Assembly (NCBI GenBank): GCA_001724265.1
Contig: MEDY01000010.1
Span: 124,001-172,255, forward strand
Source: Rhizaria sp. SCN 62-66
Lineage: Eukaryota
DNA length: 48,255 nucleotides
Direction: 5' to 3'
Below the pieces are notes generated by a model, which was not told the DNA's origin, did no database searches, and saw nothing but the letters and a program-made list of their open reading frames with translations. Of this stretch, positions 1,672 through 47,925 are shown piece by piece; within the stretch, counting starts at the first letter, position 1; the number at the start of each line of letters is the position of its first letter. The translations under genes and the position numbers were made by a program.

Positions 1672-1711
<40 letters not shown>

Positions 1712-8417: not shown

Positions 8418-11400
8418 ATGTCGCAGCTTTGTCTCGGCGCTGCCCGGCGCTTTGCACGCTGCGCAGCCTCGTCTTCGGCTTCGACAGCCGCTGCCGCCAC
8501 ACACCTCATCTCGATTCCTTCGGCCTCGGCAGCCACCACTGCGTCTGCCTTCGGTCGCACGGCCTTTGCGCCGCAGCCGCAGCCGCACGCGTGCTACCCT
8601 CCGCCGACGCCCACGTGCTCGTCCGCGCTGCTCACAGTCCCCGTGCGCCACGCCTCCAGCGCCAAGCCCAACGCTGACGCTGCCGACGCTGCCGACGCTG
8701 CTGGTGTTGATGCATCGGCGATGGACGCGGCCAAGAGCGCCAAGCCCAAGCGCAGCAAGTTCAACTTGAGCGACTTCACCTCGTCCATTACTGCCGACGC
8801 CAGCGGCGCCGACCGCGCGTCGCTGCTCGAAAAGCTCTCCAGCAGCAGTGCCATTGCTAACATCAGCGACGCTGCTGCAACTGGTAGCAAGGTGGCTAAG
8901 TCAGGTCGCGCCGCTGCCGCTGCCAGCAAGAAGAAGACTGCTGCCACCGCGACTCCCGCTGCCGAGCTTGAAACCGCTGAGTACGATGACGACGACGACG
9001 ACAGCCTCGCAATGCTCCACCCTGCCACCGCCCCCGTCACGCGCCGCACAGTCGCCTGGTCCTCCGACGCCAGCGCCAGCGCCGGCCCCGCCGGCCCCGC
9101 GGCCGGCGCGAATGCCGGTGCGAAGCGCGGCAGCGCGCAGGAGCGCATGCGCGCGCTGGCGGCGTCGTTCGCGCGCGCCGTGCGCTCCGGCGAGATCCAC
9201 CGTCTCGGCCAACACTCGGCGGCGGCGACAGAGCTCGCTGACGGCGACGGTGCCGGCGCAGACGCGAGCGTGATAGGAGACCAGGGCGACGGCGCCGAGT
9301 ACGGCGACGACGACGGCCGCGACGGTGACGGCGGCACCGGTCCGGCATCGCGCCACCGCGGCCGCCGGCAGTCCGCGCACCGCTACGATGACGAGGAGGC
9401 CGCCGTGGCGCGCGCCGCGGGACTGCCGCGCACGGTCTCGGACAAGCTCGCGTCGGCCGCGCGCCGGGCCCGCGAGCGCACGGTCTCGTCGCGCCTCTCG
9501 GCCGAGGTCAAGGCGGCCGCGCAGGGCCTGCCCAGGCAGGCGCAGATCGGCGCCTCCGGCAGCAGCGTGTCGCGCCTGGACCCCGTGTCGGGCGGCGAGC
9601 TGCCATCGCACAAGTTCAGCAAGCCCGTCTTCGCGTCGCCGGCGCAGGTGAACAAGAACCATTCGCTACCGGACCGCGAGGAGCTTGGTCTGGCGACGTC
9701 GCAATGGGGCATCCAGCTTGTGCTCGAGTACCTCAAGACGCAGAAACTCGCACGCATGGTCGTCTTCGACACGAGCGGCGTCTACACGCACGCGGACCAC
9801 GTTATCATCGCGACCGCGCCCTCCGCGCGCGCGATGAGCAACCTGGGCCAGCGCCTCGTGAAGCTCGCACGCATGTACAACGCTCCGCACCTGCACCGCA
9901 TGGGCGCCTCGGCCGACCCCGACGGGCTTTGGGTCCCCGTCGCGCTTGGCCCGCTCGTCGTGCACCTGTGCACGCAGGAGGGCCGCGTGGCGCCTATGGT
10001 CGCGCGCATGGAGCAGCGCTTGCTGCGCGACGCGCCCATCATCCCCTACCCGCAGTGGCACACGATCAAAGACCCTTGGACGGTGATGGCGGAGCGCATT
10101 GAGGCCACGGCCTTCTCGCCGCTGCCCGCGCACGTGGCGACGCCGCCGCCCGGGTACTTCAACACCGGCAACGGCAAGCCCATCGTCGTGCGCGGCGCCG
10201 ACGACGCGGCCGCCGCGGCCGAGACGGCGTTGGACCTTGCCGAGGACGCGCCCGCCGTCGCCGCCGCGCTGGCCACGGGCGTCAACGGCTACCCCGCGCT
10301 GGGCGACGAGCAGGACGACCAGGAGCTCGAGTTTGCCTTCTACTCGCGCGCCGAGGCTGCCCGCGACAGGTTTGCGCAGGACATGCTCGCCGCGGCGGTC
10401 AGCGCGCCCGGCGGCGGCAAGGGCCGCGCGCCCGCCCAGGGCGGCGCCAACGGCAACGGCGGCAGCAAGAGCGCGAAGACCGCCAAGAGCGGTGGCAAGG
10501 GCGTCGGCGGCGCCACGAGCGCTGCCGAGGTCGAGTCGCGCTCCGACATCGTCGACGTGTTCACCCCCAATGATGGCACCGGCGCCAGCGGCAGCAACGG
10601 CGGCGCTGCTGCGGGCAACAGCGAGGTAGAGACAGCGCGCCTCATCGCGGCCGGCATCACAGTCAACCCGCTGGGCGCCGCCGCCGAAGCCGCGGCCGCC
10701 GCTTCCGCGGCCAAGACGCGCGAGCGCGACGAGCGCCGCGCAGTCTCCCGCGGCAAGCACCTCATCGCGCGGCTGCTGGCGACCACGCCCGAGCAGCGGG
10801 GCGCGGCCGCGCCGCCGGCGTACAACGCCAACAAGCACGAGGCGGCCTTCGCGGCGCGCGTCGCAGCCGCCAAGGCCGCTGCGGCCGCCGCAAAGCTCAA
10901 TGGGGGCGCGAGCACGAGTTCTAGTAGCAATACCGATGACGGTGTTGTGTCGCAGGGTGGCAAGCGGGCGTTCTCGACTCACAACAACGTGCTGAGTGTA
11001 CGTGCGCTCGGCCGTGGTATCGCGAGCTCAGGCAGTGTGAGTGCGGCGGTCTCGCGCGGTGTGTTTGCCGGCTCGCGCGCGGTGCTGGCCCACAGCAAGA
11101 AGGGCAACGGTGTTGATGATGACGATGATGATATCGATGGCGTTGACCGGGGGTTCTTTGGTGCTTAGGATGTGAACAAGCATAGCCACATGATGTAGGC
11201 AACTCGGCCCCACGATATCCACAACAGTCACAACAACATTAACAGCCACAATCATAGCCACAAGAGCCATCATCACAGCCAGGGTGCTAGCAAGTTCAGC
11301 GGCGGCTCCGGCGCTCGCCACCGCGACTTCGCGCTGGAGCAGCGTCTGCACCGGGAGCTGGACCTTGAACAACACGGCCACGGCTAGATCCACAGCCACA

Positions 11401-14387
11401 GGCACGGCGGGCTCGGTCTGCCGCGCGACATCGACGACGACCTGGACGGCGACGACGCGGGCGACGGGTACGCAGAGAGCGACTACGACGAAGACATCGA
11501 CCTCACTTCGCTGCTCGAGGAAGGCTCTATCGCCTTGCACCCGAGCGCTGGCTCCAGTACAGCTCCCGCAACGAACCACGGTCTCGGCCACGGCCACGGA
11601 CGCGGGGGCGCGCGCTTGGCTAGAAACGCACGGAATGGCAATGTCTAGCTTGACGCTGACAGCGACGGTGCGAACGGCTCGAAGCTGAGTCCGATTCACG
11701 ACGACATCGCGTCGTTTCTCTCAACGGGAAGCTTCAGCATCAGCAAAGCGGCCCGGGGCGGCGAGCGGACGGTGCCCTCTCTGAGCCAGTACCGCAGTGC
11801 CCCCCTCGGCCTGCCCCCGAACACGCGCGTCAGCGGCAGCAATAGCCTGACCTCGAATAGCGACAGCGACGGCGCCCTCACCGCTGCCGGCGCTGCTGCG
11901 GTGGGGCTCAAGAGGTCCCGGCCCCTGCTTCCCGAGGACGATGACGACTTCGAGGAGGACGACGAGTGCGACGATGACGACGACGACGAACTCGTCGAGG
12001 GCAGCGGCAATGATGGCTTTAGCACCGAGGGCACCACCCTACTGTCGGACGACGACATCGACGCAGGCTTCTTCAGCTCGAGCAACAACCCCGGTGACGT
12101 AAACGTCAAGAGTCTCGCTTTGAGCCGCGGTGCCCGCGCCCCCATCATCACCAACACCGCGGATAGCGGCGACTTGGCGGTGTTTCCGCCGCGGCAGCCG
12201 CGCCGCCGCCTCGGCCCGAGCACCCTGAGCACGCTGAGCACGCTTGTGGACGCCCACGGCGGGCTAGCTAAGGTTGACGCGCCGCTGTCTCCGTTCCTCG
12301 ACTGCCTCGAGGGCGGCAGTGGTACCGGCACGGACCTGGACATGGACACGTCGGTCACGCGCTCGCTGTCGCACGCGGGCAACACGAGCCACCGCGACGG
12401 CGACAGCGGCGCCGTCAATGCCGGGCTCAACGGCGCCGGCGCCGGCGCGGGCAGCGCGTGGTGGCCCGGCGCCCCCGCTCTGCCCAGCCACACGCTCACG
12501 CACGGTCATGGCCACGGCCAAGGCCCCAGTAGCGCAAAGGCGCTCGCCACGCGGGGCAGTGGGAATGCGTTTGCGCTGTCGAATAGCTTTTCCAACAAGG
12601 ACACCACTGACTTGGATCTCTTGCTGTTCTCGCGGGGCGACAACATCGCCAGCCAGGTACGCCGAATAACTGAAACTCATATTAACGAGCAACGATAACG
12701 CGAAACGCTCACCAAAGTAGATATTATTTGAATTTATTAATATCGTGATATTCATTCTTAAGTGTGACCTTACATCATCTCCATTTATTTCTTAAATCTT
12801 CACCCCCCCCAGGACTGGGAGTACCGCTCGTCGCGCCACCTGGCGCGGCACTCGATCAACCCCGGGCCGGTCAACAGCTACACGCACGGCGGACTCGGGC
12901 CGCTGGGCAGCGACATCGACTTCGGCGACCCCCACAGCGACGACGCCGACGCCCTCTCCGACTTCGACGACGACGACGACGACGATGTTGACGACGATGA
13001 CGACGACGGGTTCGGCCACCATTTGACCGGCGGCCGCCGCGGGCTCCGCCGCAACCAGCTCAACCTCTCGCAGCAACTTCCCGCCCTCACTGCCTTCACC
13101 GCCGGCGCCGGCGCCGCTTCTGTCACCTCTGCCGCCACCGCGCTTGCGCTGGCCCCCGCCGTCGCAGGCGGCGTCGGCAGCGCTGTCGGCGGCGTGGCGG
13201 CGTCGCTGCACGGCACTGGCGCGGTCGACAGCGACCTGGAGGGCGACCCGGCCTTCGAGGACGGCGCCAACGCCGTGGTGCTGTCCTCAGACGCGGCCGC
13301 GCTGCGCATGAGCCTCACGCTCGGCGGGCTGGGCGCGGCCGCGCAGTCGCTGGGGCCCGGTGGACGGCTGTCGCTTAAGCCGGCCTCGGCGGCCACGGCG
13401 GCCGCGGCGGGCATTGTCATCAATGCGTCACCGCAACAGCAGCAGCAGTTAGCGAACGGTAGCGGAGTGTTGCCGCTGCTGTCGAGTGGTGTCCTGGGCA
13501 ACGGGGGCAGCGGCAACTCGGCCAGCAGCAGTGCCGCCAGCAGTCGCCGCAACATGTCCTCGGTGCTGCCTCCACTGGGCTACAAGACTAAGAGCAAAAG
13601 AAGCGACGGCGACGGCATCGCCAGACTGATCACGACTCCGCCTGTGGTTGCCGCCGTCGCGAACAGCAAGGGCGGCGCGGCGAAGAAAGCCGTGCCCGTG
13701 CAAAGGCGCGACTTTGACGACGACGAGGACGACGACGGGGACACCGCCGATGAAATGACCCGGTTGGGCCTTGGACCCTCGCTTGTCCCGCGCAAGAACA
13801 TCGGCAGCACCACTGCTGCTGGTGGCGCCTCTCAAAGTCGCCTCATTTTGACACCGCCCAACAAGAAGTCTCAGCCTCAGTTGCAGTTGCAGCCGCAGGC
13901 ACGACCACAGGCGCAATTCACCGCCGTGGCCGCCGCTGCGCCCGGCACTGCCGCGGCCGAGGTCGCCGCCTTTATGTCAGGCCGGCGGCTTAACTTCCGC
14001 GACCTGCACGGGCACTCGTGGTCGGGCGCCGAAGGCGAGGGCGACGAGGTGCTGCTCGAGGAGCGCCGCGCGCAGGCCGCGGTCGACAGCGCGATCGCCG
14101 CGGCGACTGCAAAGTCTACAGCGAACGCCAGCCTTACCAGCACCAGTTCCAGTGCCAGCTCTAGTGCGAGTGCGAGCAAGAGTGCGAAGAAGAGCTCCAA
14201 CATGGCGAGTGGTGACGTAATCTCTGGTCCAGCGCTGGTCGCCGGCACGACAATGAACGGCGGATTCGGCAAAGTGACTGTGAGCGGTCAGAACAGTAGC
14301 AACAATGGGCTGCGTGGGTTCAATTTGTACGATATGGATGCTGACTTGGCGCCTCAGGGTGGCAAGAAAAACAAGTGGAAGAATTGA
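8418..14387 (+). CDS. RsfS/Iojap (MALSU1-like) domain protein with predicted mitochondrial presequence and long low-complexity extensions, ~1937 aa if TAG is read as sense; exons 8418-12656 and 12813-14387
   Basis: Domain at ~9700-10020 (LEYLKTQKLARMVVFDTSGVYTHADHVIIATAPSARAM...WVPVALGPLVVHLCTQEGR) fits the RsfS pattern. The N-terminus is Arg/Ala/Ser-rich with no acidic residues. Track ORFs 8418, 11772 and 13023 share one frame and are joined through in-frame TAGs at 11166, 11196, 11385 and 11646 plus one intron. TGA stop. Confidence 0.75.
12657..12812 (+). other. Spliceosomal intron (156 nt, phase 0)
   Basis: CAG|GTACGC...CCCCCAG|GAC; AT-rich; contains an in-frame TAA; frame preserved across it. 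Confidence 0.85.
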
Positions 14388-15318
14388 ACAATGCAGTAAT
14401 CTGATCTCCTGATAAGTCTGTGTCATCGTTGGCGTGCGCGTTAAAATGAATCCGCATCCTGGGTTACGGAATGCGAGGCTTGTTGTGACGGGGTCATGTG
14501 ACTGCCGTGGCGAAGGCCACACTAATTTATTAATAATATTATGTGCAAACCATATAGTAAATAGCTAATAAACAACTGTTATGAATCTTAGAAGCGCTGC
14601 TTTGGCTGTTGTAATACTTATAATGCGCGCTTCCCCGGTCTTGACTGTAAGACTGACTTGCGACAGCCGCCCGTTTGTCTGGCACGATTCTCGAGCCGAT
14701 CTTGGGAGAGGCATACCTCACAAACGATTCGTCACAATACCGTGAGGTAAAAGCTGGGGAGTATAATCTAGTCTGTTCTTCTAATATATTTTTGTAATAT
14801 CCTGCAATCGATTCGCCTTGGGTCTTTTGGACTGTTTCTCCCGCGACGCGAGCGACCGTGCGAGTGGCACTGCCCAGCCCCCTCCGATCTCAACACTCGG
14901 AACCAGCTGTGCTGAGATCTTAAGCAGACAAAACTTGACTTTAGTACACAAACGGTGTACTTGTGTTGCATTTTGTTGGCAGCAGTCGCAAATATAGCTC
15001 ATGTGCAGTGAGGTCCGACTTTGTGCTTGAGTTGTGCAGCCGTTCACCTTGCGCGTGCCCCTGCGCCTCAACTCAAATATGTGTGACTGCAGATCCACGG
15101 CAATTGTCAATGAGTCTCTAGTTTGATTAGACCAATTTTAACATAACTCCACAGCTCATATTTGATTTAATTATCTTATATCCCCATTTCGTCTCTCCGG
15201 CAGTCTCTCGGAACCACTCAGAAGTTCCCCCCACCACTTCACCTCTCAGCCCCTCCTCCCGTGCCCTGCTGCCCCGCCTCGCCCCGCGCTCTCCGCGTTG
15301 TCTCGGCCCCCGCGCGCG

Positions 15319-18300
15319 ATGGACTCCCGCCCCGGGCCCTCGGTCCTTGCCTCCTGGCTCACCCCGCCCGCCTTCCCCCTCTCGGCCTCCGACGTCCTCG
15401 CCCTGCGCGCCCGCCTCCTGGCGCGCCTGCTGCCGGTACGTGATGTGCGCAAGATGCTCGCGACCTACCGCGCATGCTTCTCCGGCGACGACCTCGTGCA
15501 CACGCTCACCACGGCGCCGCTCTGCGGGCCCCTGACGCGCCCCGCGGCGACAGCGCTGGCCACAGCGCTGCTGGCACACCGGTTCATCGTCCGCGCGCAG
15601 CCCGTCGGCGCGGTCACTGCGGCGCAGGCCGCGGCCGCCGCCACCAGCCAGGACATCCCCGCGCTGCACCCCCACAACAGCAACGGCTTTGGCGACGGTA
15701 GCGGCAGTGAGAACGCGCTCGTCCCCGCCGGCTCTGGCTCCAACGCCGCCCCTGCGAGTGCCGTTGTGTTCAACCCCTCACCCGAGGCACTGTACCAGTT
15801 CACCGTGCGCGCCTTCACGCCGTCCAGCGCCTCGGTGCTCCGCGTTGCGGCCCCGGCGGCATGTGTGGTCGACACTGTCGCCACCGCCGTCGCCGTGATT
15901 GCCAACGACGCCACAGTCGACGCGAACAATACCGCAAGTACAAGCAACAACAATACTAACGATGACAGTGACACTGACACGGTCGTTGTCACCACCAATG
16001 CTCTTGTCGCTCCCGGCTCCAGCTTGGGCTCTAGCTTGAATGCTAGATCCAGCTCTAGCTCTAGCGCCGGTCGCTCCGGCCGGTCCCGCGCCCCTCAGCC
16101 GTTCTTGGGCGCCGGCCCCGACGGCACTTACCTCGCGGCCCCCTCCACTTACACCGGCGGTCCAAGCGCCCCATCCGCAAGCAACAGCGACGCCGCGTGC
16201 GCCGCCAGCCCGCCGACGACGGCGGCCTCCGTGGCCCGGGCCAGCGGGGGCAGCGACGTCGACGGGGACGCACCGCTGTGGAGCCTGCTGCACCGGCGCG
16301 CGGCCGCCGACGCGACGGCGGTGGCGGCTGAGCTGGCCGCCGCGGCGCCCGCGCCCGCGTCCAAGAAGGACAAGGAGAAGGAAAAGGAGGCCAAGAAGGT
16401 TGCCGCGGCCAAGGCCGTTTCAATCGCTGCCGCCGCTAGCACCAATGCGAGTGCGGGCGCAGGTGCTCTGATATCTCCGCATACGCCACCGCCGGGCGGC
16501 GTGGGCGTCGCCGGCGGCGTCTCCGCAAGCAACGCGATCGCGGGCGGCAAGGGCTCGCCGGCGAAGCTGCAGCGGCTGCTGGGCAACGACGACGCCGTCA
16601 TGGCCGTCGAGGGCGGGCTTATGAGTCTCTTCTCACCGCTACAGAACCCAAATGCACCGTCTTCTTCCGCCAGCACTGCAGGCAACGGCGCCGGCGTGAA
16701 GCCGAGCGGCCGCAAGATGTCGACGACCAATGTCAACGCGAGCAGCAGCGCTACGACAGGCACGGCGGCCGGTGAGGGCGACGACGAGGACGAGGACGAA
16801 AGCAGGGACGGCTTCGCCAAGGACGGTGCAGCTGGCTCATCTACTGCCAACTCCAAGATCAACAACGCTATGCACGGCCCTGAGCCCCCCGTTGGTCCCG
16901 TCGTTGCCTCCCAGGCTGCCTTTGCTGCCGCAGCTTCCGCGGCCGCCGCCTCTGCAGGCACCGCTGCTCTCTCCGTATCCTTCGCTCTCTCTGCGCAGGC
17001 CTCTTCACATGGCGCTCAGGTTCGTTGACTAACACAAATAAGGATTGATAAATATATATCACAATGAAGCTATTTCTCAGACCCCGACTTTTTCATTCGA
17101 TCAAATGACATGATCCAAATAATTATCCTAACATTCTTTTCATTTTGACATGACCCTCACTGTATCCTGACCGTGTTTTTTTTCATCCTCGCCGCGCAGG
17201 GCTGGTACGCCGACTGGGCTGGTTGGGTGGACAAGAAGCGCGACAAGCGCCTCGCCCTCTCATGGTACCAGCGCCGCTACCTGCGCCTGGAGACGGCCGC
17301 GGGCTGCCTGTGCTACTACGCCGCGCCCACGGAGGTATTCCCGCTAGGTTTCATCCCGATCGCCGACATCAGCGACGTGGTGCTGCTCGTCGACAAGTAC
17401 GACGGCCGCCGCCTCGACGTCGTTACGCCCAACCGCGTCTACGGCTTCAAGACGGACTCGGCGCGCGCGGCGACGCAGTGGGTCGCCGCCATCCAGGCCG
17501 CGCTGAGCCACTACCGGGCCGGCGCGGGCGCTTTTGCCCGCCCCGCGGTCGCCGCGCCTGTTGCGGCCGTCGCAGCGGTGGTGCAGAGCGGCCGCCATAA
17601 GCAGCGCCGCATCCGGGCCGCCGGCCGCGCCGCCGCCGCCATCGCCGCCGCGGCTGCTGCCGCTTCGGCTGCGGCTGCGGCGGGTGAGGGCAAGACGGGT
17701 GAGGAGAAGGACGGCAACGTGACCAAGTCGCTGACTGCTGCGGTAACGCACAACGCGCACAGCCACGGCGCCGCCAGCGTTACCGCGCAGCTGACGCCGA
17801 CGACGCCGGCCGCGATCCGCTTCTTCTGGGCCACAGCGAAGCACGCGCCGCGGCCGCAGCACGCCAGCTCCGGCGCCGCCGCCGGCGCCTCCAGTGGCGG
17901 AGCTGCGTACAGTGGCTCTGACCAGGGCTACGTGGCGCCGCTGTGGGCCTCGAAGCTTGTACCCGCGCACAGCCACTTGCCGCTGCAGTCGCCGGTCAAC
18001 GGCGGCGTCACGTCGCCGATCGCTAGCAACAACAATAATACCAGTAATAAGAGCAGCGCTAGCTCGACTCCAATGAGTGGCGAAGCGAAGTCGCGGCTTA
18101 ACTTGTGCGTCCCCACGCGTAGCATGCCTGTTCCGCTGGATCTCACTCCTCTGCTGGAGCAGCAGCAGCAAAGGACCTCGCCGACCTCCCGTCTCACTGA
18201 ACGCAACACAAGCTCTACCAACCTGAGTCCTGGTGCCAGTGCGGGTGCGGCTGCTAGCGCGAGTGCGAATGTGACTGGCGCCCCGGCGCTTGTGTCCGCG

Positions 18301-21300
18301 ACTGGCGCTCTGCAGTGGACGCCCCCAGCGTCTGTTGCGACACTCGGTCTCGGCTCGTTCTCACCGCTGTGGCTGCAGTGGGCCCAGGAGCACCTGTCGC
18401 CCATGCTTTTCACGAACAGCGCCGCCGCCGCTGCCGTCACGACTGCCGCCGCTGCTGTTACCGCGAATCCCAACAGCAGCAGCACCTTTGCGGCAAAAGA
18501 CGCTGTGAGCATCGTGTGCGATGATCTGTACTCCCGCAGCGGCTCTCTGTACCCGTCAGACCCGCTGGCGACACTGGCCCTGCACGCGGCCCCCGCGGCG
18601 CAGGGCCACGACGCCGCCGCGCACAGCCACGACGCGCTCTGGGCGCACCTGCACGCGACGCTGCTGGGCGCCGACGCTGACTTGCTGCTGCTGCCGACGT
18701 ACGACTACCAGGCCTTCCGGCTCCAGTGCCGGCCCGCGCTGGTCGCGGCGAGCAGCAGCAACGCGAACGCCGTCGTCCCTGCCGCAGTCGCTAGCGCGGC
18801 TGGGAATGCGGGGAGCAGCAACGTGATTGTCGGTGCGACTGGCGGCGCGTTGGCGACTACCTCGAGCTCCGTCGCAGTCACTGCGACAGGCACTGGCTCT
18901 GGCACTGGCACGGGGACGTCGAGCTCGCACGGCGCGTCGGTACTTGTGACCCCGTGTTCCGCGTCCTCGTCGTCGTTCTACACGGCGCTCTCGCATTCGG
19001 CCCATAACAACAGCGCCGGCGGCAGCCCTGTGCGCACCGAGGGCGACGAACTCCCCAGCAGCAGCAACGCCAAGTTCAACTCGCTCTCCGCCGCCCCCAA
19101 GAGCGGCGCCGCGACCGCCGTCGGGGGCGCTGGCGCCGGCGCCGGCGCGGCGGGAAAGTCGCGGCGCTACACGGCCACGACCTCGAGCACCGCCGCAGCC
19201 GCGGCCGCCACTGCTAACGCCAACATCAACAACGGCAACAACAGCGTCACGGTGTGCGACTCCGCGGCCGACGCCGGTCTGCGCGGCGCGGGCGCGTCCA
19301 ACGGCCACAACGATGACGACGGTCGCGGCGTCGGGCTCGGCGGCCTCAAGCTGCAGCTGCACACGATGTCTCTCGCGCCGTCGGTCACCTCGGTGGCCGC
19401 TCTGGACGACGACCGAAGCGACGCCGAGAGCATGTTCTCCGTCGACAACGGCAGTCACGGCGGTCTTGGTGGCGGTAGCGGCAGCTCGTCTAACGCCGCG
19501 AACACGATGCGCACGCCGGTGCTGCCGGCCGCCCCCGCGTTGCCGTCGTTCGCCGAGCAGGACGACGACGACGACACCAGCAGCGGCAACATCACGGGCG
19601 TGAGCTGTAGAGTCGTCAACGCCAGCGGCGCTGTCTCTGTCGCGTCTCGCGGCCGCGCGGCGACCATCACGCCATCGAGCTCCTCTACCAGCAGCAGCAG
19701 CAGCAACAACAACAACAGTAGCAGCACTAGCATGGTCGCCAGCGTTCTGGCGGACGGCGCGTCGCCGCCCGCGCCCACGGTCACCCACGTCTCCAGCGCC
19801 ACCACTACCACCAACAGCGCTAGCAAGACCATGTTCCCCCACGGCGCCTCGCCGCCGCCGTCGCAGTCGCACTCGCCGACGACGGGCCTGTCGCGCGCCA
19901 ACTCAATCTCGCGCTCGATGGCGCCGTCGGTGTCGCCGTCGCGGCTGCTGCAGCCGCTGCAGCTGCGCGAGTCGAGTCGCATCCGGCCCACGCTCACCGC
20001 CTCGGTCTCCGCGTCGCGCAGGCCCTCGGTGGCGTCCAGCGCGACGGGTGGCAACAACACCAGCATCAGCACCACAGCCGGCGCTGCAGGGAATGCCGTG
20101 AGCACGAGCACAAACGCGGACAGCGTCGCTTCCGCGTCTCTCGTGGGGTCTCCGGTCTCGGTAGCCGACAGCCGCGGCAACAGCAAGAACGAGGGCGAGT
20201 GCGAGAGTGCCTGTGAGCAGCGCGGCCGTGGTTACGAAGGCCTGCTGCCGCTGCCGTCGTTATGGGGTGGCTTTGCTTCACACAACATCGCCGTCACGGC
20301 TGCCAACGCAAGCCAGGCCAAGAGCAAGACTGTTGTTGGTTATTCTGCTGGCTCAGCCGCGAATGCTCGTGCCCAGGCCCGCTACACTGCCGCGCGCCAC
20401 CGCGCCGAGTCGTCCTCCGCGGCCGACATATTGTGCCCTGCGCTGTCCCGCTGCGTGGTGCCCTCGGTCGCGACGCGCACGCTGCCCACTGTCACCCTGC
20501 ACCCCGCAGCCGTCGCCGCGCTCGCGCTCGCGCAGCAAAAGCAGCGGCAGCAGAAGCAGCCATGCGGTCCCAGTCAGAAGAAGAGTGGCGCTGCTGCGGC
20601 TGCTGCCGCGAGCAAGGGCAAGCCGCAGTTCGAGAGCATTCCGATCTCGCCAATTGGCGCTGGCACCAAGCTCAACAACAACAGCGGCAGCAGCCGCAGC
20701 AGCAGCAGCGCGAGTCCGAGCGACCGCGCCGGCGCGGCATCGCTGGCCCCGTTCCTGGCTCTCGTGTCGCCGGTGTTCATGTTGCACAGTGCCCGCGCCG
20801 CCGACGAGCCCGCGCCCGCGCTGCCGCTGATGTTGGGGCAGGCCGCCGTCGCCGCATACACCAACACGCTCCCCAACCCCACCCCTGTCTCCGCCTCGAG
20901 CGCCGCGAGCAGTCAGAACAAGAAGAAGCGCAAGGGCAAGAAAGATGCCGAGAGCTCTGTGACCGCTTGCAACGCAACTGACTACGCTGGCGGCTACTCT
21001 AAGCTCACCGGCCCCTCTATCGCGTCGCTGTCGCGGCCGACGCGGCTCTGCGTGCAGCACGCCGCGCGCCCGCGCCCGCGCTCGCTGCCGCCGGCGTGCC
21101 GCGCGCTGCCCCTCGTCTCCCTCGTCACCACCACCACGGCCACCAACGCCTCCGCCAACGCCAGCGCGAGCGCAAACATGACCGGTGAGTTTGACGGTGA
21201 GAGCCCAATCTCCCCTGCCACCAACTACAGCACTGCCAGTGCCGGTAGCACCTGCGCGGGTCAAAGCCAGAGCCAGGGCCCCGCGGTGCCCGCGGCGACG

Positions 21301-33558: not shown

Positions 33559-34421
33559 TTACCGGTAGGACTTCTGGTAGCGGGCGCGGGCGCCGGGACC
33601 ACCGAACTTCTTGGGCTCGCGGCGACGGGGGTCAGCGACGAGGAGGGAGCGGTCGTAGCTCAGGAGGAGGTTCTTGATCTCGACCTTGGAGGCCTCATCG
33701 ACGTCTATAAAGGACAAAGCAAGCGAGCGAGAGCGGGAGCGAGGGAGCGAAGAGGATTGGAGGGACAGGGAGGAAGAGAAGCGAGAAGTGAGCGAAGGTG
33801 CGGGACATGGAAGATCAACGCGAATAGGGTGCGCAATAGTGAATCAAGGTAATAGCTCGATTGAAGTAGCTATATTACATGATTAAAGAGCGAAAGCAGC
33901 CGCGCTTGCCCTGTCGCGGACGTTTGGGAGTGGGCAGCGCGATGCAGTGGGTGTGCGAAGAGAAGGACGTACACTTCTGGTAGTAAGCAACGAGGGCCTT
34001 GCCGATGGCCTGGCGGACAGCGTAGACCTGAGCGACGTTACCACCGCCGTTGACCTTGACGCGGATGTCGACCTTGCCGTAGCGCTGAGGGTCTCGTTGG
34101 CGATCGTGTCAACGGGCTTGCCGTTGATCTTGACCAGACCAGAGCCAGCCTTGCAGTGGGCGACCGCAATGGCGGACTTCTACTCGGGCGATAAAATCAC
34201 GTAGCAGCGTCAAAAGAGGCAACGACAGAGAGGGCAGGGCGTGAGCGGCAGTCGCAGTGGACACTAGGGGCACACCGCCCCGGTCGGGCAGTAGACAGTG
34301 GCGATCAAAACTAGGCATAAAGCACAACAAATCCGTCAATAGAGAATATGGGGGGTGTGCGGGAAGAAACAACACAGTGACGTACCTTCTTACCGTAAAC
34401 CTGAACAGCGGGAGCAGACAT
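33559..34421 (-). CDS. RPS16: 40S ribosomal protein S16 (uS9); exons 34421-34386, 34179-33973 and 33704-33559; apparent ~40-nt frameshifting deletion near 34088 (assembly error or pseudogenised allele)
   Basis: [12 protein letters not shown] / [31 protein letters not shown] [gap and frameshift] [38 protein letters not shown] / [51 protein letters not shown] stop. Exon total is 389 nt, not a multiple of 3. Confidence 0.95.
33705..33972 (-). other. RPS16 intron 2 (268 nt, phase 1)
   Basis: AAGT|GTACGT...TTATAG|ACGTC; pyrimidine-rich on the minus strand. Confidence 0.9.
34180..34385 (-). other. RPS16 intron 1 (206 nt, phase 0)
   Basis: AAG|GTACGT...GAGTAG|AAG; splicing restores the conserved GKKK motif. 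Confidence 0.9.
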
Positions 34422-35082: not shown

Positions 35083-35991
35083 ATGAGTTCCGCAGCGCAC
35101 CACACCCACGGCGGCAGCCTCCCCGCGACGACTCTGTCCGCGGACGTGTCCCCGTCCACGGGCCACCTCTACCCCGCCGTCAACACATGGCTCACGCCCG
35201 ACGGCAAGCACCGCCTCTCGGACGCGTTCAACTTCTGGTTCTTCAATCGCCGTGCGCAGGTCCCGGCCGCGTCCTCGGCGGCCGTGGCGTCAACGGCGGC
35301 CCCCAAGGACCAGTACGAGGGCGGCCTCTTTAAGGTCGGCCCGTTCAGCACCGTCGAGGACTTCTGGGTGCACTACTCGCACGCGCGCCGCCCCACGGAG
35401 ACGTCGCAGCTCTACATCCTGCACTACTGCTTCCGCGACGGCGTGGAGCCGCTGTGGGAGCACCCGGCCAACGCGCGCGGCGGGCGCTGGATCGTGCGTC
35501 TGCGCAAGGGGACCGCGGGCCGCGCGTGGGAGAGCGCACTTCTGGCGCTCGTGGGCGACGAGTTCAACCTGGGCGACGAGGTTTGCGGCGTCGTGCTCTC
35601 GATCAAGAAGCACACGGACGCCACGCTGTCGTTCTGGGTGCGCGCGACGACCAAGGAGGCGGGGCTGCGCGTGCGCGACGCCATCAAGCGCATGCTCGGC
35701 GTGGGGTCAAACGCGCTCGAGTACCGCATGCACGACACATCGCTGCAGCGGCACGAGGCGACCGTGGCCAGCAAGGAGCAGGCCGCGGCCGCCGCGCAGC
35801 AGAAGACGCAGACCCAGGCGCAGTCGCAGGACGGCAGCGCGGACAACGTCGACGGTTCAGGCGCAGACGCCGATGCTGATGCTGATGCTGATGATGCTAG
35901 CGATAGAAACAACAATGGCGGTGGCGTGATGTCGATGATGAAGCAGAATAATGGCACTAGCAACGCTGATGATGATGCTGAGGACGAGTGA
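35083..35991 (+). CDS. EIF4E2: eIF4E family cap-binding protein, class II (4EHP/eIF4E2/nCBP-like), 302 aa
   Basis: HRLSDAFNFWF...QYEGGLFKVGPFSTVEDFWVHYSH...FRDGVEPLWEHPANARGGRWIVRLRKG...WESALLALVGDEF...EVCGVVLS. The W43 and W56 equivalents are F and Y, as in class II. TGA stop. Confidence 0.85.
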   Translation: MSSAAHHTHGGSLPATTLSADVSPSTGHLYPAVNTWLTPDGKHRLSDAFNFWFFNRRAQVPAASSAAVASTAAPKDQYEGGLFKVGPFSTVEDFWVHYSHARRPTETSQLYILHYCFRDGVEPLWEHPANARGGRWIVRLRKGTAGRAWESALLALVGDEFNLGDEVCGVVLSIKKHTDATLSFWVRATTKEAGLRVRDAIKRMLGVGSNALEYRMHDTSLQRHEATVASKEQAAAAAQQKTQTQAQSQDGSADNVDGSGADADADADADDASDRNNNGGGVMSMMKQNNGTSNADDDAEDE

Positions 35992-36794: not shown

Positions 36795-39035
36795 ATGGTG
36801 TACCGCCGGCTCAACTGCCAGTCGTGCGCAGACGTGCTCTGTTGCCGCAGCTGCTGCGGCGAGCGCGATTGCTGCTCCTGCCTCATCCCCAAGTCCGCCC
36901 CCGAGGCGAGCCGCATGATGACCTTCGGCGGCTTCCTCTTTTTCGTCGCGTGCCTCTTCGTCGGCATGGGCTTCCTCGTCCCCGCGTTGTTGGACCGCTC
37001 GCTGGAGCGCGGGCTGCACCAGCTTAAGGCGCTTGACTCGACCGACTCGCGCGCCTACTCGCTCTTCAGCGACAACCACGAGTACCCGATCAAGCTCTCG
37101 ATCTACGTCATGAACGTGACAAACCACGCTGCCGTGGTCAACGAGGGCGCCACGCCCGTGATCCAGGAGGTGGGGCCCTACGTCTACCTTCAGTACCGCC
37201 GCGCGCTCAACGTGTCGTGGACCCCCGACGCGACCGAGCTCAACTGGCGCTACTTCAGCCGCTTCGTGTTCCAGCCGCAGGAGTCGGCGGGCGACCACGA
37301 GAAGGACATGGTTTACTCGCCCAACGTCATCTTCTGGGGACTCGCCGCGTCGTTGCGCGACACCAACCCCGGCCAGCTCGTCGTCGTGGCCACCTTCTCG
37401 GGGCTTGACGACGTTGGGCTCGCCTTCGTCAAGCGCTCGCCGCGCGACGTCATCTTCGGCTACGCCAAGGAGACGGACCCGATCCTCAAGATCGTTGGCA
37501 AGGACCACGAGGGGCTCATCACCAACTTCACCTCGGAGGATGACGCGCTCAAGCGGGCCAAGTACGACACCATCCGCACCGGCTACCCCGACATCCGCAC
37601 GCTCCACCAGCTCGTCCAGTACCAGGTACGATACACAATCTGCCTCTAGATTGTCCTTAAGCGTTGTAATTCTCTTGACTATGTCGTCAGGGATGCAAAC
37701 AACATGCCTATATCTCACCTCTCTCTTGTTTTTTTGTTTTTATCTTGCTTCCCTCTCGTCTCCGCGTCCGACCCCGTGCGCACCGCGCCCCCACAGGGCC
37801 AGGAGGTGCTGCGCAACGCTGACAACTCGTCCTGGGCGTGGGCTAACCCCGAGCTGGGCCGCGTGCGCGGCTCCGACGGAGGCATGTTCCCTCTGCCCAT
37901 CAACCAGTACTCGAAGCCGACCGTGTTCGTCTCGTCCTACTACCGCTCCATCGACCTGGACTACGTCGAGCGCCGCACTTACAAGGGCGTGCACCTGGAA
38001 CGCTTTGCCGTGCCGGCCACGATGTGGCTCTCCAAAGACAAGGTCCCCGACAACATCGACTTCGACCAGATTCGCTGGGACGGGCTGCTCAATCTCACTT
38101 CGCCGACCAGCAAGGTGCCGTTCTACCTCTCGCGGCCACGCTTCCACATGGTCGACGAGGACGCGCTGACCAACATGCACATCGAGTGGCTGCCAGAGGC
38201 TGCCGACGCTTTCCCGTCCGACTACGAGACCTTCTTCGACGTCGAGCCGACGATGGGCGCGTCCATGTCTGTGGTGACCAACTCGCAGCTCAACCTGCAG
38301 TTAGCACCCTTTACGGTGACCTACATGCAGGATGACAAGCCGACGAACCGGACTTTCTGCCCCAACATGACGACCTTCATGGCGCCGCTCTTCTGGGCCA
38401 ACCAGTCGGTAATGATCAGCGACAAGGACGCCAGCGACTTCGTGGGCTCCGTCTATGCCGTCTTCGACATCATGCGCGTCACACCCATCGTCTGCTACTC
38501 GATCGCGGGCGCCATCGCGCTCATCGCGCTGCTCATCGCGCTCCGCGGGTACAAGTACCACCAGCTCTATCGCTTCGAGGGCCACGTCTTCGTCGAGAGC
38601 GACAATGTCGACAACAACTTCGCCAGCGACGCCGTCATCGCACAGCACCGCCACAGCCGCTTCACGCGCGGCAAGCCTGCGCGCCCCGACGGCGGCGTCG
38701 CGGGCGACGCCGAGGGCGTGGGGCTCGACTCGCTGGCAGCCCACTACCAGGCGCGGAACGGGCGCGCTCACGGCCGTCGCTACGGCGCCACGGGCGAGTC
38801 GCAGACCGCGGTCGTGGCCGTCGCCGGCGCAATCGCCATGGATGGCAACGGCGGCAACGGCGCGGTGCGGGGCCAGACCGCGGCCCGCGGGTCCGGCACC
38901 GGCTCGCGCCAGAGCTCGCGCTCGCGCCCGCGCAACGACAACGGCAGCGGCAGCAACAGCGGCGACGGCAGTGTGGAGCGCACCGTCGCCGTCGACGCGC
39001 CCGAGCTCGACATGCGCTTCGCCAGCGACGATTGA
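36795..39035 (+). CDS. CD36/SCARB (LIMP-2-like) scavenger receptor family protein with two TM helices; exons 36795-37625 and 37797-39035
   Basis: N-terminal TM (FGGFLFFVACLFVGMGFLVPALL), IYVMNVTN...PVIQEVGPYVY, VRGSDGGMFP, PFYLSRPRFH, TFFDVEPTMG, APLFW, and C-terminal TM (IVCYSIAGAIALIALLIAL). TGA stop. Confidence 0.9.
37626..37796 (+). other. Spliceosomal intron (171 nt, phase 0) in the CD36-family gene
   Basis: CAG|GTACGA...CCCACAG|GGC; AT- and pyrimidine-rich relative to the flanking exons. Confidence 0.85.
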
Positions 39036-39862
39036 GCTGGCAGGCAGCGCTGTCCGAGAGATGAGTGCCAGCTGAGTCGTGTGAGTCGCAGTTAAAACTG
39101 GTGTTCTGCTTTCGTGTTTGACAATGGTTTAGGGTCGTATAAAGGGTCAGTGTAGCTTGGCTTATTGGCTTAGTTGAGCGAGATTATCATAGTTCATGTC
39201 GCGGTCGTCACTGCTTTATTGGCGATGACTTGTGTCGTCGTGGTGGTCTCTTGCTTGTTTGTCATCCCTCTGTCTTTTTCCAATCTTGGTCGCAATCGCG
39301 CTCTGCTCTGTTGGCATTACCTATGTTGACGTAAGTTCACTCGCACTCACCCGCGCTGAGTGCAGACGCTTTTACAGTCACATGCACACATCATTATCAT
39401 TAACACTCACCCCAAACAACACTCGCTACGCATAAGCGAACGCGGGAATCAGCAAACCTAGTAACTTTTCGTTTTCGTCTCGATCATAACAAACGATTTT
39501 TTTATCACCTTATTGTTTTTCAGAATACATTCGTCTATCCCTTTTGAATCGACGTTAATTTTAATTATTATGAACGTGCATTGCTTAAGTCTGTCGCTTT
39601 TGAGCAATGTTAGCAATGAAGTAATGAGTGTTGACATCATGCACCCGAAGCACAAGGCAGGACAAGAGCGGAGTAGATGTGTTGAAAGTTGTGAATAATT
39701 ACAGCAGGAAGAAGAAAAAAACGAAAAGAGAAGTGGGGAGCTCAAGTACATAAGTCTGAAGAAGAAATACAAAAAGAGGTGCAAAAGTGAAAATAATCAT
39801 TGTTAAATTTGGATGTTGGACAGAGGTGTCATTAGACTTCAGGTAAGAGTCAGTCATATGAG

Positions 39863-42166
<2,304 letters not shown>

Positions 42167-42636
42167 TTGATAGGCTGACCTTAGGTCCACAAGATGCAGA
42201 TAGAAAAAAACGCGCCACTGGGCGCTAGTCGCAACTTTAGAGAAAAATAAAACGGTTGAATAAATAATATATTTGTAAAAATCTGGATAGCCGTGAAATT
42301 GCACAATTGACGATAGAACTTTCGAAATCAGAACATTTTAATGAAGTCGACTTGACGCGAGCCGCATCATCGCGTGCGGCACGAGCCACCACAAACCGTG
42401 TTGTGCATCGGGTCTCAAGTTCAGCCCAACTTTATCGGTTGTTATCGTCACCATGCCGTCGTCAACCTCGTGACGCGTACACACATCCTGTTGCTAATCT
42501 CTTGAATTACTTGAAATGTATTTGCTTTAAGTCAACTTCACTCTTAGCAAACAAGAAGCACAAGGATAAACCGCCTTCATCTAAAGGCCACCACGAGTGA
42601 AATCGGCTGAGTTTGTAGCCGCTACTGGGCTTCAGG

Positions 42637-45600
42637 ATGAGTTCTTCGTCTCCGCCCGATATGGTTGATGATCTGCCGCTTCCTACAGTTGCTGTTTCGC
42701 AGGACTCTGCTTCTCCTGGTCGCTACCTGATCCCAGGTTCGGCATCTGCTGGTCCTGCTGCACCTGCCGCTCCAGCCTCTGCCTCCGGCTCCGCGTCGAC
42801 ATCTGCCGCCGCTCCAGCTCAGGTTTCTCCAAAGAGGTATGCTGTACCGCAAGCAGAAATTACGTTTGGACCGACGATATTGCAAGACAGCGCGCAATCA
42901 TCGCAGCTTGAGTCCGACATTGAAAACAAGCCTCACACGCAAAACATCGACACTAGTAGCGCGCTGTTTACTGCCACTGGCAGCAGCAATAGGATCAGCG
43001 CGGCGACAGCCCCGCTCAACCAGTCAAGCATGCTGTACCGCACTGCTGCAGCGCACAGTCAGTACAGTCAGTACAGCAGTCCGGCTGTGTTTCACCGCGC
43101 CAGCCCCGCCACCAAGCCTGCCCACGCAGTTGCTGCAGTTGCGGACGCGGCGGACGCGGCGGACGCAGCGTACGTCACTGATGAAGCCGATACTAATGCT
43201 ACCGTGGGCAGCACGTATAATGGTAACAACAGCGCGAGTCTAGCACGAAGTTTTAACACAAAGAAAGCGGAAAATGATTCAGCAGCTGCGGCAGCGACAG
43301 ACGCTGCGACAGACGCTTCTGCGGTGACTGAGACGGCTAATGACACTGCAACAGGAACTGGAACTGCTCATTTGACAGTTGACAACGCTGTTGCGGCTGC
43401 AAACAGGGCAACCGCTGCAGCTCAGGCTGAGGCTGCAGCGTTGTCGCGGCGCTGTTCACGGCTGCAGCGCAAGCTATCAGCTCAGCAGCAACAGCAACAG
43501 CAGCTGCGGTATCAACGGTACTTGTTCAGCACAAGTGCTTTTACAGATCGTAGTGCAAGCGCAATGGCCAGTCAATTTGTGGGAAGCTTTAGCGATAGGA
43601 CTGTCTCGCGACTACTGACATCAACGTTGGCGGCCGCCGCAGCTGCCGCCGCAGCTGCTGCCGCAGCGGCTGCAAACTCAAGTGATAGTTTGGAGACCGA
43701 GAGCAGCAGCAGCGTCAGTGCGTTGCTTGGAGGCTCGCACCCTTACATCCTAGACCTACTTAGACGGGGCTACCTAAATCCTGACGACAAAGACCTCTCT
43801 CAAGGATACGGCACCGACGAGGTCTGTGCATCACACTTGCCGGACGCCTATCGCGACAGCGGTGACGCCGCGAACGTGGGCAACACGGACAAAGACAGCC
43901 GCAGCGCTGGAATAAGCCGTGCTGCCAATGTGTCTGCTTTTGCGCGCAGTCCACCGTAGTCCCCGCTTTGTGGTCACAGCGACGCAGTCGTCAGCTGCAC
44001 GCTGGGGGTGTCCTACTTAGAGGCCTACGTCGCCACACTCACGGACGCCATCAGGCGGCTAGACTCGGCAACATATCAGTCACTCATAGCGCCAACGGTA
44101 TTGGAGCAACAGTGTCGTGTGCAGATAGCGCCGGATAGGGCCAGCGCTGCTAGCAGCAATCTCGTCAACGGTGACGCACCAGCAACGGCGACAGAGGCTG
44201 CGACAGAATCTAATGGCGACAGGACTCGGCGTAGCGTGCCGTCGAGCACGGGGTCTGCAAGCACGCTTTCGGGTTCCAATAGAGACACCGCAAGTCCCGC
44301 AGTCCTCGGCCTTCCCGCCTCAGTCGTCGCGCTCGTGACCGCGGCCGTCTCGCACACGCTCTCGGTCACGGCCACAGCCACCGCGCCGCTGCTCACTGCC
44401 GCGCCGCCCCCGCCGCCGCCCGCCGCCGCGACGGTCGTCCCCGCGGTGCCGCGCGGCGGGCTGCGGGCAAGCGCCTCCTTAGACGGGGCGAGGATGACCC
44501 CCTCAGCCGTGGCCCACTTAGCCGTGGCCGCGGAGGCCGCGCTGGCGGTGGGCCCCCGGCCGGCGCTGGTGCCCGGCGCGGCCTGGAGGGCGCAGGATCT
44601 CCACCGAGACCAAGGCGCGGCAGGCGTGGCGGCGGAAGAGGCTGCGGCACGCATGCGGAAGCACGGCGAGACTGAGCGAGCGAGACGGGGCGTGCTGACG
44701 GGGCTCGGCGCGGCGGTGCCAAACGCACACCCCAGTGCGCAACCTGTTCTATCAGTATTTAACACCGTATCTGCAGATATCAATAGCGATGCGCTTACTC
44801 CTTTTGCCGGGGGAACTGCGAGGGGGCTCCAAGGGAGGAGTGCTCACTGTGCTTTTGCTTCAGTGTTTAGCCTAAGCTGCGCGCTGGTAGGTCGATGTTT
44901 CAGAACGTGAACAAAAATCAGATTACTAAAAATATGGCAGGATATGACTGAATTCTAAAAATATGATATAATTAAATGTTCTTATTTTAGAAAAGAAATA
45001 TTATTGAATTTGGATTGCAAAAGTTTCAAAATGACTTATATAACTCAATTTATAGCAACTTGCTCACTCCCGCACTGTACTCATTGCGCTGCCACTCTTA
45101 CACTGGCATAGGGCAACGACTTGTCCCGTTTGTTTTCAGCCTGGCTGGTGCCCACAGCAGCAACACTTCTCTCTGTGTACCCTTCAGCAACCACAGCGGC
45201 ACACGACGCTTGGGCTGGCGCGAGTGCGAGCGCGAGTGCTATGATGGTGGCAGCGACGCCGACAACAGAGGCGGGTGCGTCCGTTCTCGCCGCGGCACAG
45301 ACGCAGACACTGCTACAGCTGAGGGCCAGGGCAAGCGCGCACGGCCGCAGGCTACTTGCGCGCGTGTCGTCTGCACTCTCCTGCCTTGTTATGATTCTCT
45401 CTACTCCCGCTCCCACCGCATCAGCAACAGCAGCAACAGGACTGCCGCTGTCCGCCCAACTCCCGCGCACCCTCTTGCTGCTACGGCTACAGCGCGCGCG
45501 TTCTCTTGTGTTTAGCGCAGCACACGCGTTGCTTCGAGGGCTAGCACAGAGCCATCCACTGTTATGCGCGGCTGCGCTATCGGCGGTTTTGACCGCGATT

Positions 45601-47925
45601 AGCCACAGAGCAACACAGAACAAGAGCAGCACAGTTGGCGAAAAGTCGGGAGGCGCGAGAGACTGCGATCTATGGCTTGGATCCTGTCTAGAGTGCATAA
45701 CTGCCTTGTGGTCACTGATTCCTAGCGCGACTGACACCGCGCTAACGGCTCATAGCATCCACGGGGGCGGCCATCGTAACTAGCCTGGGGCAGCGCGAGT
45801 TGTCGCGCCCTTTGCGCCTCCTTTACAAGCAGAAGTAGCTGCCGACGCTGGGTGGCAGCAGAAGCTAAGGGCGTTGGCAATGCTTTCAGTCACTCCGCAC
45901 AACATCCATGCAGAGACGAGTGGCCGTGATACGAACATTGGCAGTAGTGCTGATGTTAAAGTTGGCGACACTTTGCCCGCCGTGGCTGGGGGTGTGCCTT
46001 CAGTTACGAGGAGCGCATTCACAGTAAGCAGCACTAGCAGCACCGAGGACAAAAATTTCGGGACTAAAGGTAAGAAACAGAGTGGCGTTAGCGGGAGTGA
46101 GAATAACACGCAGTCGCACCACTTCACCGTTACGCAAACACACTTGGGCGCAGACTCAGAAACAGCCGCGTAGGCTGCTGATGTTTTGACAGGCACTGGT
46201 GCAACCTTAAACGAAATGCTGCTGTGGCAACATCAGCAAAGTCACATGCAGCAGTGGAAAGCAGCCCGCGCGGTGCTCAGTGTAAACAAAAACACGACCA
46301 GCAATGGTGATACAGCTGCAAGTGTCGGTTCCGACTCGGACTCAAACTCAGACATTGGTGATGACCAGAGCGGCAAGAGTGGTAGCAGTGGCGTTGGCAG
46401 CATTGATTCCGACACGCAGTATACGCAGCTTCCACGTCTTTTCATTCGCTCAGCAAACAGCTCGCAACTTAACTTGAATCATGGTCGACTCACCTTCCCG
46501 CAGCCGCGTCTCAACACAGTACTGTCAATAGCCATCTGGAGAGCGTGCGCGCGGCTCCAGGGCCTTGTGCCGGTGACTGTAAGCGGCGGCGGCGTGCTCA
46601 CTGTCGCTTGCCAGCATCGCCAGCAACGTCGACATTGTGCGACTGATAGCATAGGAGGTTCGCCGACGGTGAGCTGGAATGGCGTCGGCGTTGTGGAGCG
46701 GGGAATTCAGAGGAAACACAGGGCAGAACACGTTGAATCTAACGTGATGGACGATGATAACAGAGAAGAAGAGCGTCATACTGAGACGAAGCGTAGACTA
46801 AGCACTGGAAGCAGTGCGACTGAAGGCCGTTGGGATGTAAACACGTTGGCTGTACAAGGGCAGCTGACTTGCATTGAAGCCACTTGCGTCCAGAATTTCA
46901 ATGCTGACGTAAGTTCTGCAAGAAATTCAGGTAGTGTCTCTACGTTTACACCACTTTGCTCGTGTTGCGAGTCGCTTGGTTACGTGCCACTAACAACAAC
47001 ACTAACATCGCTTGCGAGCGCATGTCAAGACCGGACCAGTATAGAGTGCCACAACAATGAAGAGGCAAGTGAGCCAACAAATCACGCTTACATGTCAGCC
47101 ACGACATCATCAGATCTAATTTCTTTTGCCGACTTAACTGTCACTCAGCGCGCATGTAACACACCTGCAAACGAGACTGCGCCACAAGCGCCGACACTGT
47201 CAGACGCGCAGAGTCACACTCAGTCCTTGAGCTCAAGCCGCTGGTCCCGTTTGCATTCACGGTTCACCCGCGCCCATTGTACCGAGGCAGGGACTTCTCC
47301 AGAGAGTGACGACGACGAGGACTGTCCGTGGACAGCAACCGCAGCGATGGCAGCAGTGGTGGCGGGCGACACGCTGTCGCAGCTGCGGGCCGAGCGCGCG
47401 CGCTGGCGGTGTCACGAGGCGCGGCGCCGCGGTCACACAGGCCGCAGGGGCACAAACGCTAACGCGCGTGTTGATGATGATCACGATGACGGTGACGGCA
47501 ACGGTGACGGCGATATTAGCAGTGACTGTGACAGCATGTTTGCCAACAGCGACGACACGAGCGACGACGATATGACGCTCACCCTGTTCGCGACTCACTA
47601 CACGCAGGCCGGACATTAGCGCAGACAACGACTAAAGCTGAGGCAGCGGGCGGCAGCCGCAGCGGCCGCAGCGCGCGCGTCTCACTCCGCAAACACAAAC
47701 CGTGCACCAAGTTCCAGCGCGAGTGCGAATGCGAGCGCGATTGCGGGCGAGAGTACTGGCGCAAGCGCGAGTGCAAACGTGGCAGCAGCTGCAGCGGAAC
47801 AAAACACTACTGCTCACAGTCACCGCATGGGGGCGGTGACGGTGAGCGCACAGCCTGTGCTGGTGCCGGTCCGCACGCTGCCTGGGCTGCTACCTCTGCC
47901 ACCACACTGGTTACCTCTGTTTTAA
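42637..47925 (+). CDS. Orphan low-complexity protein, ~1687 aa if TAG is read as sense; exons 42637-44886 and 45112-47925
   Basis: Track ORFs 42637, 44008, 45121, 45874 and 46186 all share one frame. They are separated only by TAGs (43957, 45781, 46171, 47617) and one AT-rich intron. The frame continues about 100 codons past the last TAG to TAA at 47923-47925. No recognisable domain. Confidence 0.7.
44887..45111 (+). other. Probable spliceosomal intron (225 nt, phase 0)
   Basis: CTG|GTAGGT...GCTCAC...CATAG|GGC; very AT-rich. An alternative frame-preserving pair is 44891-45139. Confidence 0.65.

Follow-up and report, generated by a model that had tools for sequence, protein, structure and literature searches.

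UAG and UAA are known to differ in meaning in only a handful of eukaryotic lineages (PMC5304391, PMC10553269, PMC11687900), and the DNA described here may well come from another one. It is a stretch of 48,255 nucleotides (nt), called the window in what follows, from contig MEDY01000010.1 of assembly GCA_001724265.1 (Rhizaria sp. SCN 62-66, positions 124,001 to 172,255, forward strand), in which nine TAG codons stand in the reading frames of three genes, named here genes 1, 2 and 3.

Regarding the described systems, the rhizarian exLh (Sainouroidea) uses UAG for leucine and keeps UAA and UGA as stops; in it, 384 in-frame UAGs from 71 conserved genes fall on conserved leucines, and the use of the codon differs strongly from gene to gene, being low in genes for ribosomal proteins and high in others (Panek et al. 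2017, PMC5304391). In Iotanema spirale (Fornicata), UAG is assigned to glutamine on the basis of conserved alignment columns (PMC5304391). As for ciliates, UAG-only or split UAA/UAG codes are described for Oligohymenophorea sp. PL0344 (PMC10553269) and for phyllopharyngeans (PMC11687900).

Within what these sources describe, the window resembles exLh in that UAG is the only one of the three codons found in frame, the termini are exclusively UAA or UGA, and UAG is unevenly distributed among genes; exLh is also a non-ciliate, with relatives that are free-living or coprophilic. It should be noted that the likeness concerns features of the code, not kinship, and that the differences from exLh are substantial: the window has nine UAGs in three orphan or disordered regions, with no aligned column and none in conserved genes. 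Iotanema, an anaerobic metamonad, is comparable because its UAG and UAA differ in meaning and UAA is still a stop; however, its assignment, as the source presents it, derived from conserved alignment columns, which the TAG sites of the window do not have. The ciliates share the reassignment of UAG independently of UAA, but their cases included tRNA genes and genome-wide statistics. Moreover, the host contig is GC-rich (0.54-0.77 per 2 kb across the window), its genes are long and its introns measure 156-268 nt, which we take to be unlike a ciliate macronuclear genome.

The explanation considered best, and held as probable rather than firm, is that the host reads UAG as an amino acid and ends translation at UAA and UGA. 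It was proposed in an initial annotation of the window, whose nine in-frame TAGs (eight on the forward strand, one on the reverse) are all present, and whose nine gene termini were likewise found in place: TAA at 7100 (-), 33150 (+), 33559 (-) and 47923 (+), and TGA at 6476 (+), 14385 (+), 35989 (+), 39033 (+) and 39863 (-), hence four TAA, five TGA and no TAG. That TAA is a true stop is shown by the one at 33559, which immediately follows the conserved final residue of ribosomal protein uS9 (S16); the C-terminus of this protein can be aligned over its full extent with uS9 chains of known structure.

These nine termini served as controls for the sequence context of the TAGs, which was scored with a codon model trained on TAG-free genes only. 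Downstream of all nine TAA or TGA termini, GC drops to 0.33-0.50, the next in-frame stop comes after 1-22 codons, and every frame scores about -4.8 per codon or lower, with no preferred frame; downstream of all nine TAGs, instead, GC remains at 0.52-0.67 and, of the three frames, that of the gene scores highest, at -3.7 to -4.6 per codon. For the segments between TAGs, the gene frame ranked first among the three sense frames in 15 of 15 instances and among all six in 14, the exception being a 0.01 tie. The claim that each TAG is flanked by coding-like sequence in the same frame, with no spacer between segments, was therefore borne out by both the codon model and GC at 9/9 TAGs. The stretches after TAG 11196 and TAG 43957 are not separate genes, because they run for 381 and 178 coding-like codons, respectively, with no ATG.

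The count of TAG/TGA/TAA in the three frames is 4/0/0 in gene 1 (1,938 codons), 1/0/0 in gene 2 (767 codons) and 4/0/0 in gene 3 (1,687 codons); as had been claimed, no TGA and no TAA interrupts the TAG-bearing exons, over 4,392 codons in total. For gene 3, the position-specific composition predicts ∼18 TAA plus TGA, against none observed, and the five other frames of its two exons contain 8-27 TGA and 1-15 TAA each. In the window, TAG does not mark gene ends, and TAA and TGA do.

Gene 3 differs from the other genes in its GC content at third codon positions (GC3), which is 0.58 versus 0.79-0.95, the range of most genes of the window, and in the share of CAA among its glutamine codons, 25/72 versus 10/106 in the giant gene described below. 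This low GC3 is of long standing, yet the gene is interrupted by TAG only, so that it is not a typical gene in recent decay; its weak bias must be old, and its frame must have been kept open against TAA and TGA and not against TAG.

The TAGs are present in real DNA. Logan contigs assembled from wastewater and bioreactor metagenomes, produced by three studies, cover nearly the whole window, which implies that the host is uncultured. The comparison of contigs covered a 20-kb stretch with five TAG sites, the four of gene 1 lying outside it, and all five were found unchanged in contigs of two runs, X3 and X4, from two other studies: 41980 (-), 43957, 46171 and 47617 in X3, and 41980 (-), 45781 and 46171 in X4. 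Single-base differences occur near the TAGs in those contigs, at 45762, 46368 and 47590. As for RNA-type libraries, runs X8 (poly(A)) and X5 (cDNA-type) gave contigs with patchy cover, and no joint is listed in them for the introns of the CD36-family gene or of gene 3; one X5 contig spans TAG 46171 unchanged, and the same library holds the spliced uS9 joint, with DNA carry-over being possible. No A>G change is listed at the five compared TAG sites, where RNA cover is uncertain.

Several observations weigh against a sense meaning for UAG. The first is its distribution: TAG is absent from the ∼9,050 codons of the TAG-free genes, 5,846 of which belong to the giant gene, versus ∼77 expected from position-specific base composition, so that most genes avoid TAG as strictly as a stop. 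The idea of UAG as a sense codon is partly supported: it fits the coding context, the non-TAG termini and the presence of the TAGs in DNA, but the codon is far from being used freely. As an objection, the uneven spread is softened by the similarly uneven use of UAG among gene classes in exLh (PMC5304391) and by TTA, the rarest leucine codon, which is distributed likewise: 13 of its 20 occurrences are in genes 2 and 3, although these two account for just 2,454 of 13,442 codons. This leaves the cluster of gene 1 unexplained, where the four TAGs fall within 161 of 1,938 codons (simulated P = 0.002), a clustering that a plain sense codon does not account for. Also, nine termini are few, and the absence of TAG among them has a chance of ∼0.075 if TAG is assumed to make up 25% of stops. 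None of the nine sites (0/9) has a homologue or a family match in protein searches and Pfam, so that alignments do not reveal the amino acid at TAG. The orphan gene 3 has no predicted fold, the mean predicted local distance difference test score (pLDDT) being 0.33 in the ESM Atlas model of its 481-aa open reading frame (ORF), and, among its four listed single-base differences, three change the residue and one does not, a count that refers to the listed ones only, with 19 more differences in the 20-kb stretch outside the listing; gene 3 is thus at most weakly constrained. The RNA cover listed for the TAG sites is that of the X5 contig over 46171. Finally, ARAGORN found no tRNA gene in the window, Rfam gave no RNA family match, and an eRF1 gene is absent among the window genes.

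If the host does read UAG as an amino acid, the codon would be decoded either by a tRNA of its own or through suppression of very high efficiency, and ribosomes would pass the TAGs to make genes 1 and 3 into single proteins of ∼1,940 and ∼1,690 residues. Such a change may be young, or the codon poorly decoded, because TAG is confined to disordered, fast-evolving sequence with weak codon bias, and genes with strong bias still avoid it. A more specific version, put forward tentatively, is that of an early or incomplete capture of UAG, which would have lost its role as terminator and would be tolerated in weakly biased, fast-evolving genes and purged from strongly biased ones. Were this the case, the window would capture a stop codon in the course of becoming a sense codon, in a lineage for which no such change is known. 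As to which amino acid UAG might stand for, glutamine or leucine is a guess suggested by precedent and by the one-step mutational neighbours of the codon.

A sense UAG in this host would add a further independent lineage with UAG-only reassignment and UAA and UGA retained as stops, a kind of code that is itself known. It would also inform on how reassignments begin, from a GC-rich non-ciliate seen in metagenomes only, in which TAG is rare and restricted to genes under weak constraint; codes that split UAG from UAA bear on how eRF1 and tRNAs distinguish the two codons. A practical consequence is that gene callers based on the standard code would cut the genes of the host at TAG, and the database versions of genes 1 and 3 would be such fragments. 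In a literature search, no paper was found that describes a reassigned UAG in a eukaryote from wastewater or in a GC-rich eukaryote other than a ciliate.

Among the other explanations, all of which are unlikely, the one that survives best keeps the standard code and regards the three genes as recently truncated or inactivated by nonsense mutations, with the downstream frames as relics that have not decayed. The three genes are indeed lineage-specific and mostly disordered, their TAG regions have no homologue, no conserved gene of the window contains TAG, and the predominance of residue-changing differences in gene 3 (3/4) points in the same direction; in addition, a truncated gene 1 protein could still work, because its RsfS domain precedes the first TAG. 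In GC3-rich genes, most single mutations that create a stop create TAG, the fraction being 0.73 in gene 1; it is 0.49 in gene 2 and 0.48 in gene 3. Even so, nine stops out of nine would be TAG with a probability of ∼0.73^4 × 0.49 × 0.48^4 = 0.007. Decaying genes acquire frameshifts about as often as stops, and there is no frame change across the 4,392 codons; the argument of the initial annotation, that random decay should also give TAA, TGA and frameshifts, is upheld by nine TAGs, no TGA, no TAA and a frame that is constant in all segments. Other features fit decay poorly as well: in gene 1 the TAGs are packed in 161 codons and the next 861 are clean at a GC3 of ∼0.8-0.95; the GC3 of gene 3 demands more neutral change than its intact frame permits; assemblies from three studies agree on the TAGs; and three broken genes out of about eleven would be unusual in a compact contig.

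Rescue of the TAGs under the standard code, either by A-to-I editing, which turns UAG into UGG, or by gene-specific programmed readthrough, is a similarly improbable explanation. Known A-to-I restorative editing belongs to non-flagellate ascomycetes. Editing in filamentous ascomycetes is reported to restore premature UAGs during sexual development (PMC11156358, PMC10776026, PMC5496914); the fungal activity favours an A that is preceded by U and frequently acts on UAG, and in Fusarium graminearum 71 "pseudogenes" with premature stops are restored in this way (PMC11156358, PMC10776026). The window is similar in that in-frame UAGs occur in a minority of otherwise intact genes and are avoided in most, and editing would fit a set of stops that are all TAG, in few fast-evolving genes, with TAG avoided elsewhere. 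It differs in three respects: the A of the TAG is in a predicted hairpin loop at 3/9 sites, with a local fold z below -2 at only 1/9; the X5 cDNA-type contig keeps TAG 46171, in a library that may contain DNA; and the host contig encodes an axonemal dynein light chain. The description of the host as a flagellate, made in the initial annotation, goes as far as this one gene, which is present, and no further. For both editing and readthrough, the nine sites have no shared context, the base after TAG being G, G, A, C, A, T, C, G and C, no downstream motif common to the nine TAGs was found, and the absence of TAG among the nine termini is at odds with either process. Besides, four successive leaky stops would leave near-zero full-length product of gene 1 unless reading were near-complete; readthrough able to sustain ∼1,000 codons past four stops would have to read each of them almost fully, making UAG effectively a sense codon.

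Wrong gene models, with the TAGs in unrecognised (e.g., non-GT-AG) introns or between separate genes, are very unlikely: the host does have introns, two further TAGs lie in one or at an acceptor, 4/5 delimited introns would keep the frame, the TAGs of gene 1 are clustered and that of gene 2 could close a 62-codon upstream ORF, but the TAG surroundings (GC 0.52-0.67, in-frame codon usage) are unlike the delimited introns, the 381 codons after 11196 have no ATG, the segments have no spacers, and, by inspection, all three frames are stopped within 11166-11198, so that neither a single frameshift nor a small frame-keeping intron can remove these stops. Two alternatives at the gene 1 cluster were rejected: a double-frameshift path through the 164-codon ORF at 11194-11688, which scores below the gene frame, and a conventional intron, since inspection of the region, whose composition is coding-like, showed no pair of splice sites that would keep the frame and include a pyrimidine tract. 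The ORF at 11194-11688 (+) lies in the +1 frame almost exactly over the cluster and encodes a Thr/Ala-rich low-complexity sequence; it is taken as chance.

With regard to the single genes (Table 1), gene 1 has a Pfam match to RsfS (ribosome silencing factor) with an E value of 2.9e-07, at residues 452-541 of the read-through translation. Its database gene call is 916 aa long, ends at TAG 11166 and is on record from four contigs; it was also the sole match of the gene 1 tail in a word-indexed protein search. The later three TAGs are at most 160 codons from the first. Of the nine sites, that in gene 2 is the least secure: given its place between two ATGs, it could be the stop of an upstream ORF. 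No homologue of gene 2 was found in a protein search in which candidates were swamped by low-complexity words. As a lead only, the first 300 residues after its TAG have an ESM Atlas feature score of 0.96 to protein-kinase clusters; there was no Pfam match to a kinase domain even piecewise at E up to 10 and no PDB sequence match, and a single-sequence AlphaFold model (mean pLDDT 35.3) was uninformative. Consequently, a kinase domain spanning the TAG was not counted as evidence, and neither was a motif before the TAG that presumably resembles a glycine loop. An exhaustive protein search with exon 2 of gene 3 gave two matches only, both at 100% identity and taken as fragments of the organism itself.

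Genes 2 and 3, which both bear TAG and both have weak codon bias at their 5′ ends, diverge from an AT-rich spacer of ∼470 nt at 42167-42636. Within gene 3, a short CAG/Gln repeat at 43483-43504 collects many chimeric joints and dangling ends of contigs unrelated to the window, in each of the four runs, which makes the contig depth around it meaningless.

The five delimited introns have GT..AG ends and a GC of 0.32-0.54, below that of the coding sequence; the four at 12657-12812, 17020-17199, 37626-37796 and 44887-45111 are AT-rich, with GC 0.32-0.49. By inspection, a pyrimidine-rich stretch precedes the acceptor in 4/5. None of the nine TAGs is inside a delimited intron. The two other in-frame TAGs are non-coding: that of the CD36-family gene, at 37647, lies inside its intron and exemplifies a non-coding TAG context, and that at 45109 is at the acceptor of the gene 3 intron, whose AG is part of it. 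This last intron was defined from composition, splice signals and frame, with no RNA joint listed. Four of the five have lengths that are exact multiples of three (156, 180, 171 and 225 nt), each with in-frame stops, which may be chance, as the introns are few and their boundaries were chosen partly by frame.

Table 1. Positions in the window (first letter = 1) of the three TAG-bearing genes, their TAG codons, the introns and the other genes discussed.
Feature	Position	Strand	Remarks
Gene 1, exon 1	8418..12656	+	ATG 8418; RsfS domain, long disordered tail, four in-frame TAGs
Gene 1, TAG 1	11166..11168	+	
Gene 1, TAG 2	11196..11198	+	next 381 codons without in-frame ATG
Gene 1, TAG 3	11385..11387	+	within a His/Gly-rich stretch
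Gene 1, TAG 4	11646..11648	+	followed by 349 open codons, GC3 ∼0.82
Gene 1, intron	12657-12812	+	156 nt, GC 0.36, GTACGC...CCCCAG
Gene 1, exon 2	12813..14387	+	same frame as exon 1; terminus TGA 14385
Gene 2	39863..42166	-	orphan; ATG 42166; terminus TGA 39863
Gene 2, TAG	41978..41980	-	62 codons after ATG 42166, 2 codons before another ATG
Gene 3, exon 1	42637..44886	+	orphan, weak codon bias, GC3 0.60
Gene 3, TAG 1	43957..43959	+	followed by 178 codons without in-frame ATG
Gene 3, inferred intron	44887-45111	+	225 nt, GC 0.32, GTAGGT...GCATAG
Gene 3, exon 2	45112..47925	+	three in-frame TAGs; terminus TAA 47923
Gene 3, TAG 2	45781..45783	+	
Gene 3, TAG 3	46171..46173	+	
Gene 3, TAG 4	47617..47619	+	
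uS9 (S16) gene, TAA terminus (control)	33559..33561	-	directly after conserved last residue
uS9 gene, intron	33705-33972	-	268 nt; spliced form seen in contigs from two RNA-type libraries
CD36 / scavenger-receptor class B family gene	36795-39035	+	Pfam E 7e-61; best solved relative LIMP-2
CD36-family gene, intron (control)	37626-37796	+	171 nt, in-frame TAG at 37647
eIF4E gene	35083-35991	+	closest solved chains are 4E type 2 (4EHP)
Giant gene	15166-17019, 17200-32886, probable last exon ending 33152	+	∼5,900 codons, GC 0.74
Giant gene, intron	17020-17199	+	180 nt, GT-AG
Open frame of 1,804 codons, continuing past the left end of the window	3-5414	-	GC3 0.80, no Pfam match

The window is nuclear DNA of an intron-bearing eukaryote, as indicated by its Pfam-matched genes, uS9 and the GT-AG introns. 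The Pfam matches comprise an axonemal dynein light chain, eIF4E, a CD36-family protein, an NF-Y-like histone-fold protein and a giant protein with DEP and PH domains; the ribosomal protein uS9 is encoded as well. A protein search with the dynein light chain found no close sequenced relative of the host lineage: besides a 100% match, the closest ones have 75-76% identity, and those with named taxa have 67-70% and are spread over green algae, oomycetes and others. Relatives suitable for a codon-by-codon comparison were sought in two metagenome scans, one of which gave none and the other only a 4.3-kb contig of the same organism; contigs of prokaryote genomes, scanned for eukaryotic DNA binned there by mistake, yielded none either.

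As for the other genes, the eIF4E protein scores 129.6 bits to 4E type 2 (4EHP) and at most 90 to canonical eIF4E. The giant gene has its DEP and PH domains near the N-terminus only, the remainder being Ala/Ser/Gly-rich low-complexity sequence with no family match; there are no stops of any type in its frame, and much of its 3′ part is covered by contigs of the poly(A) library. Finally, the open frame at the left end of the window probably encodes another large lineage-specific protein.

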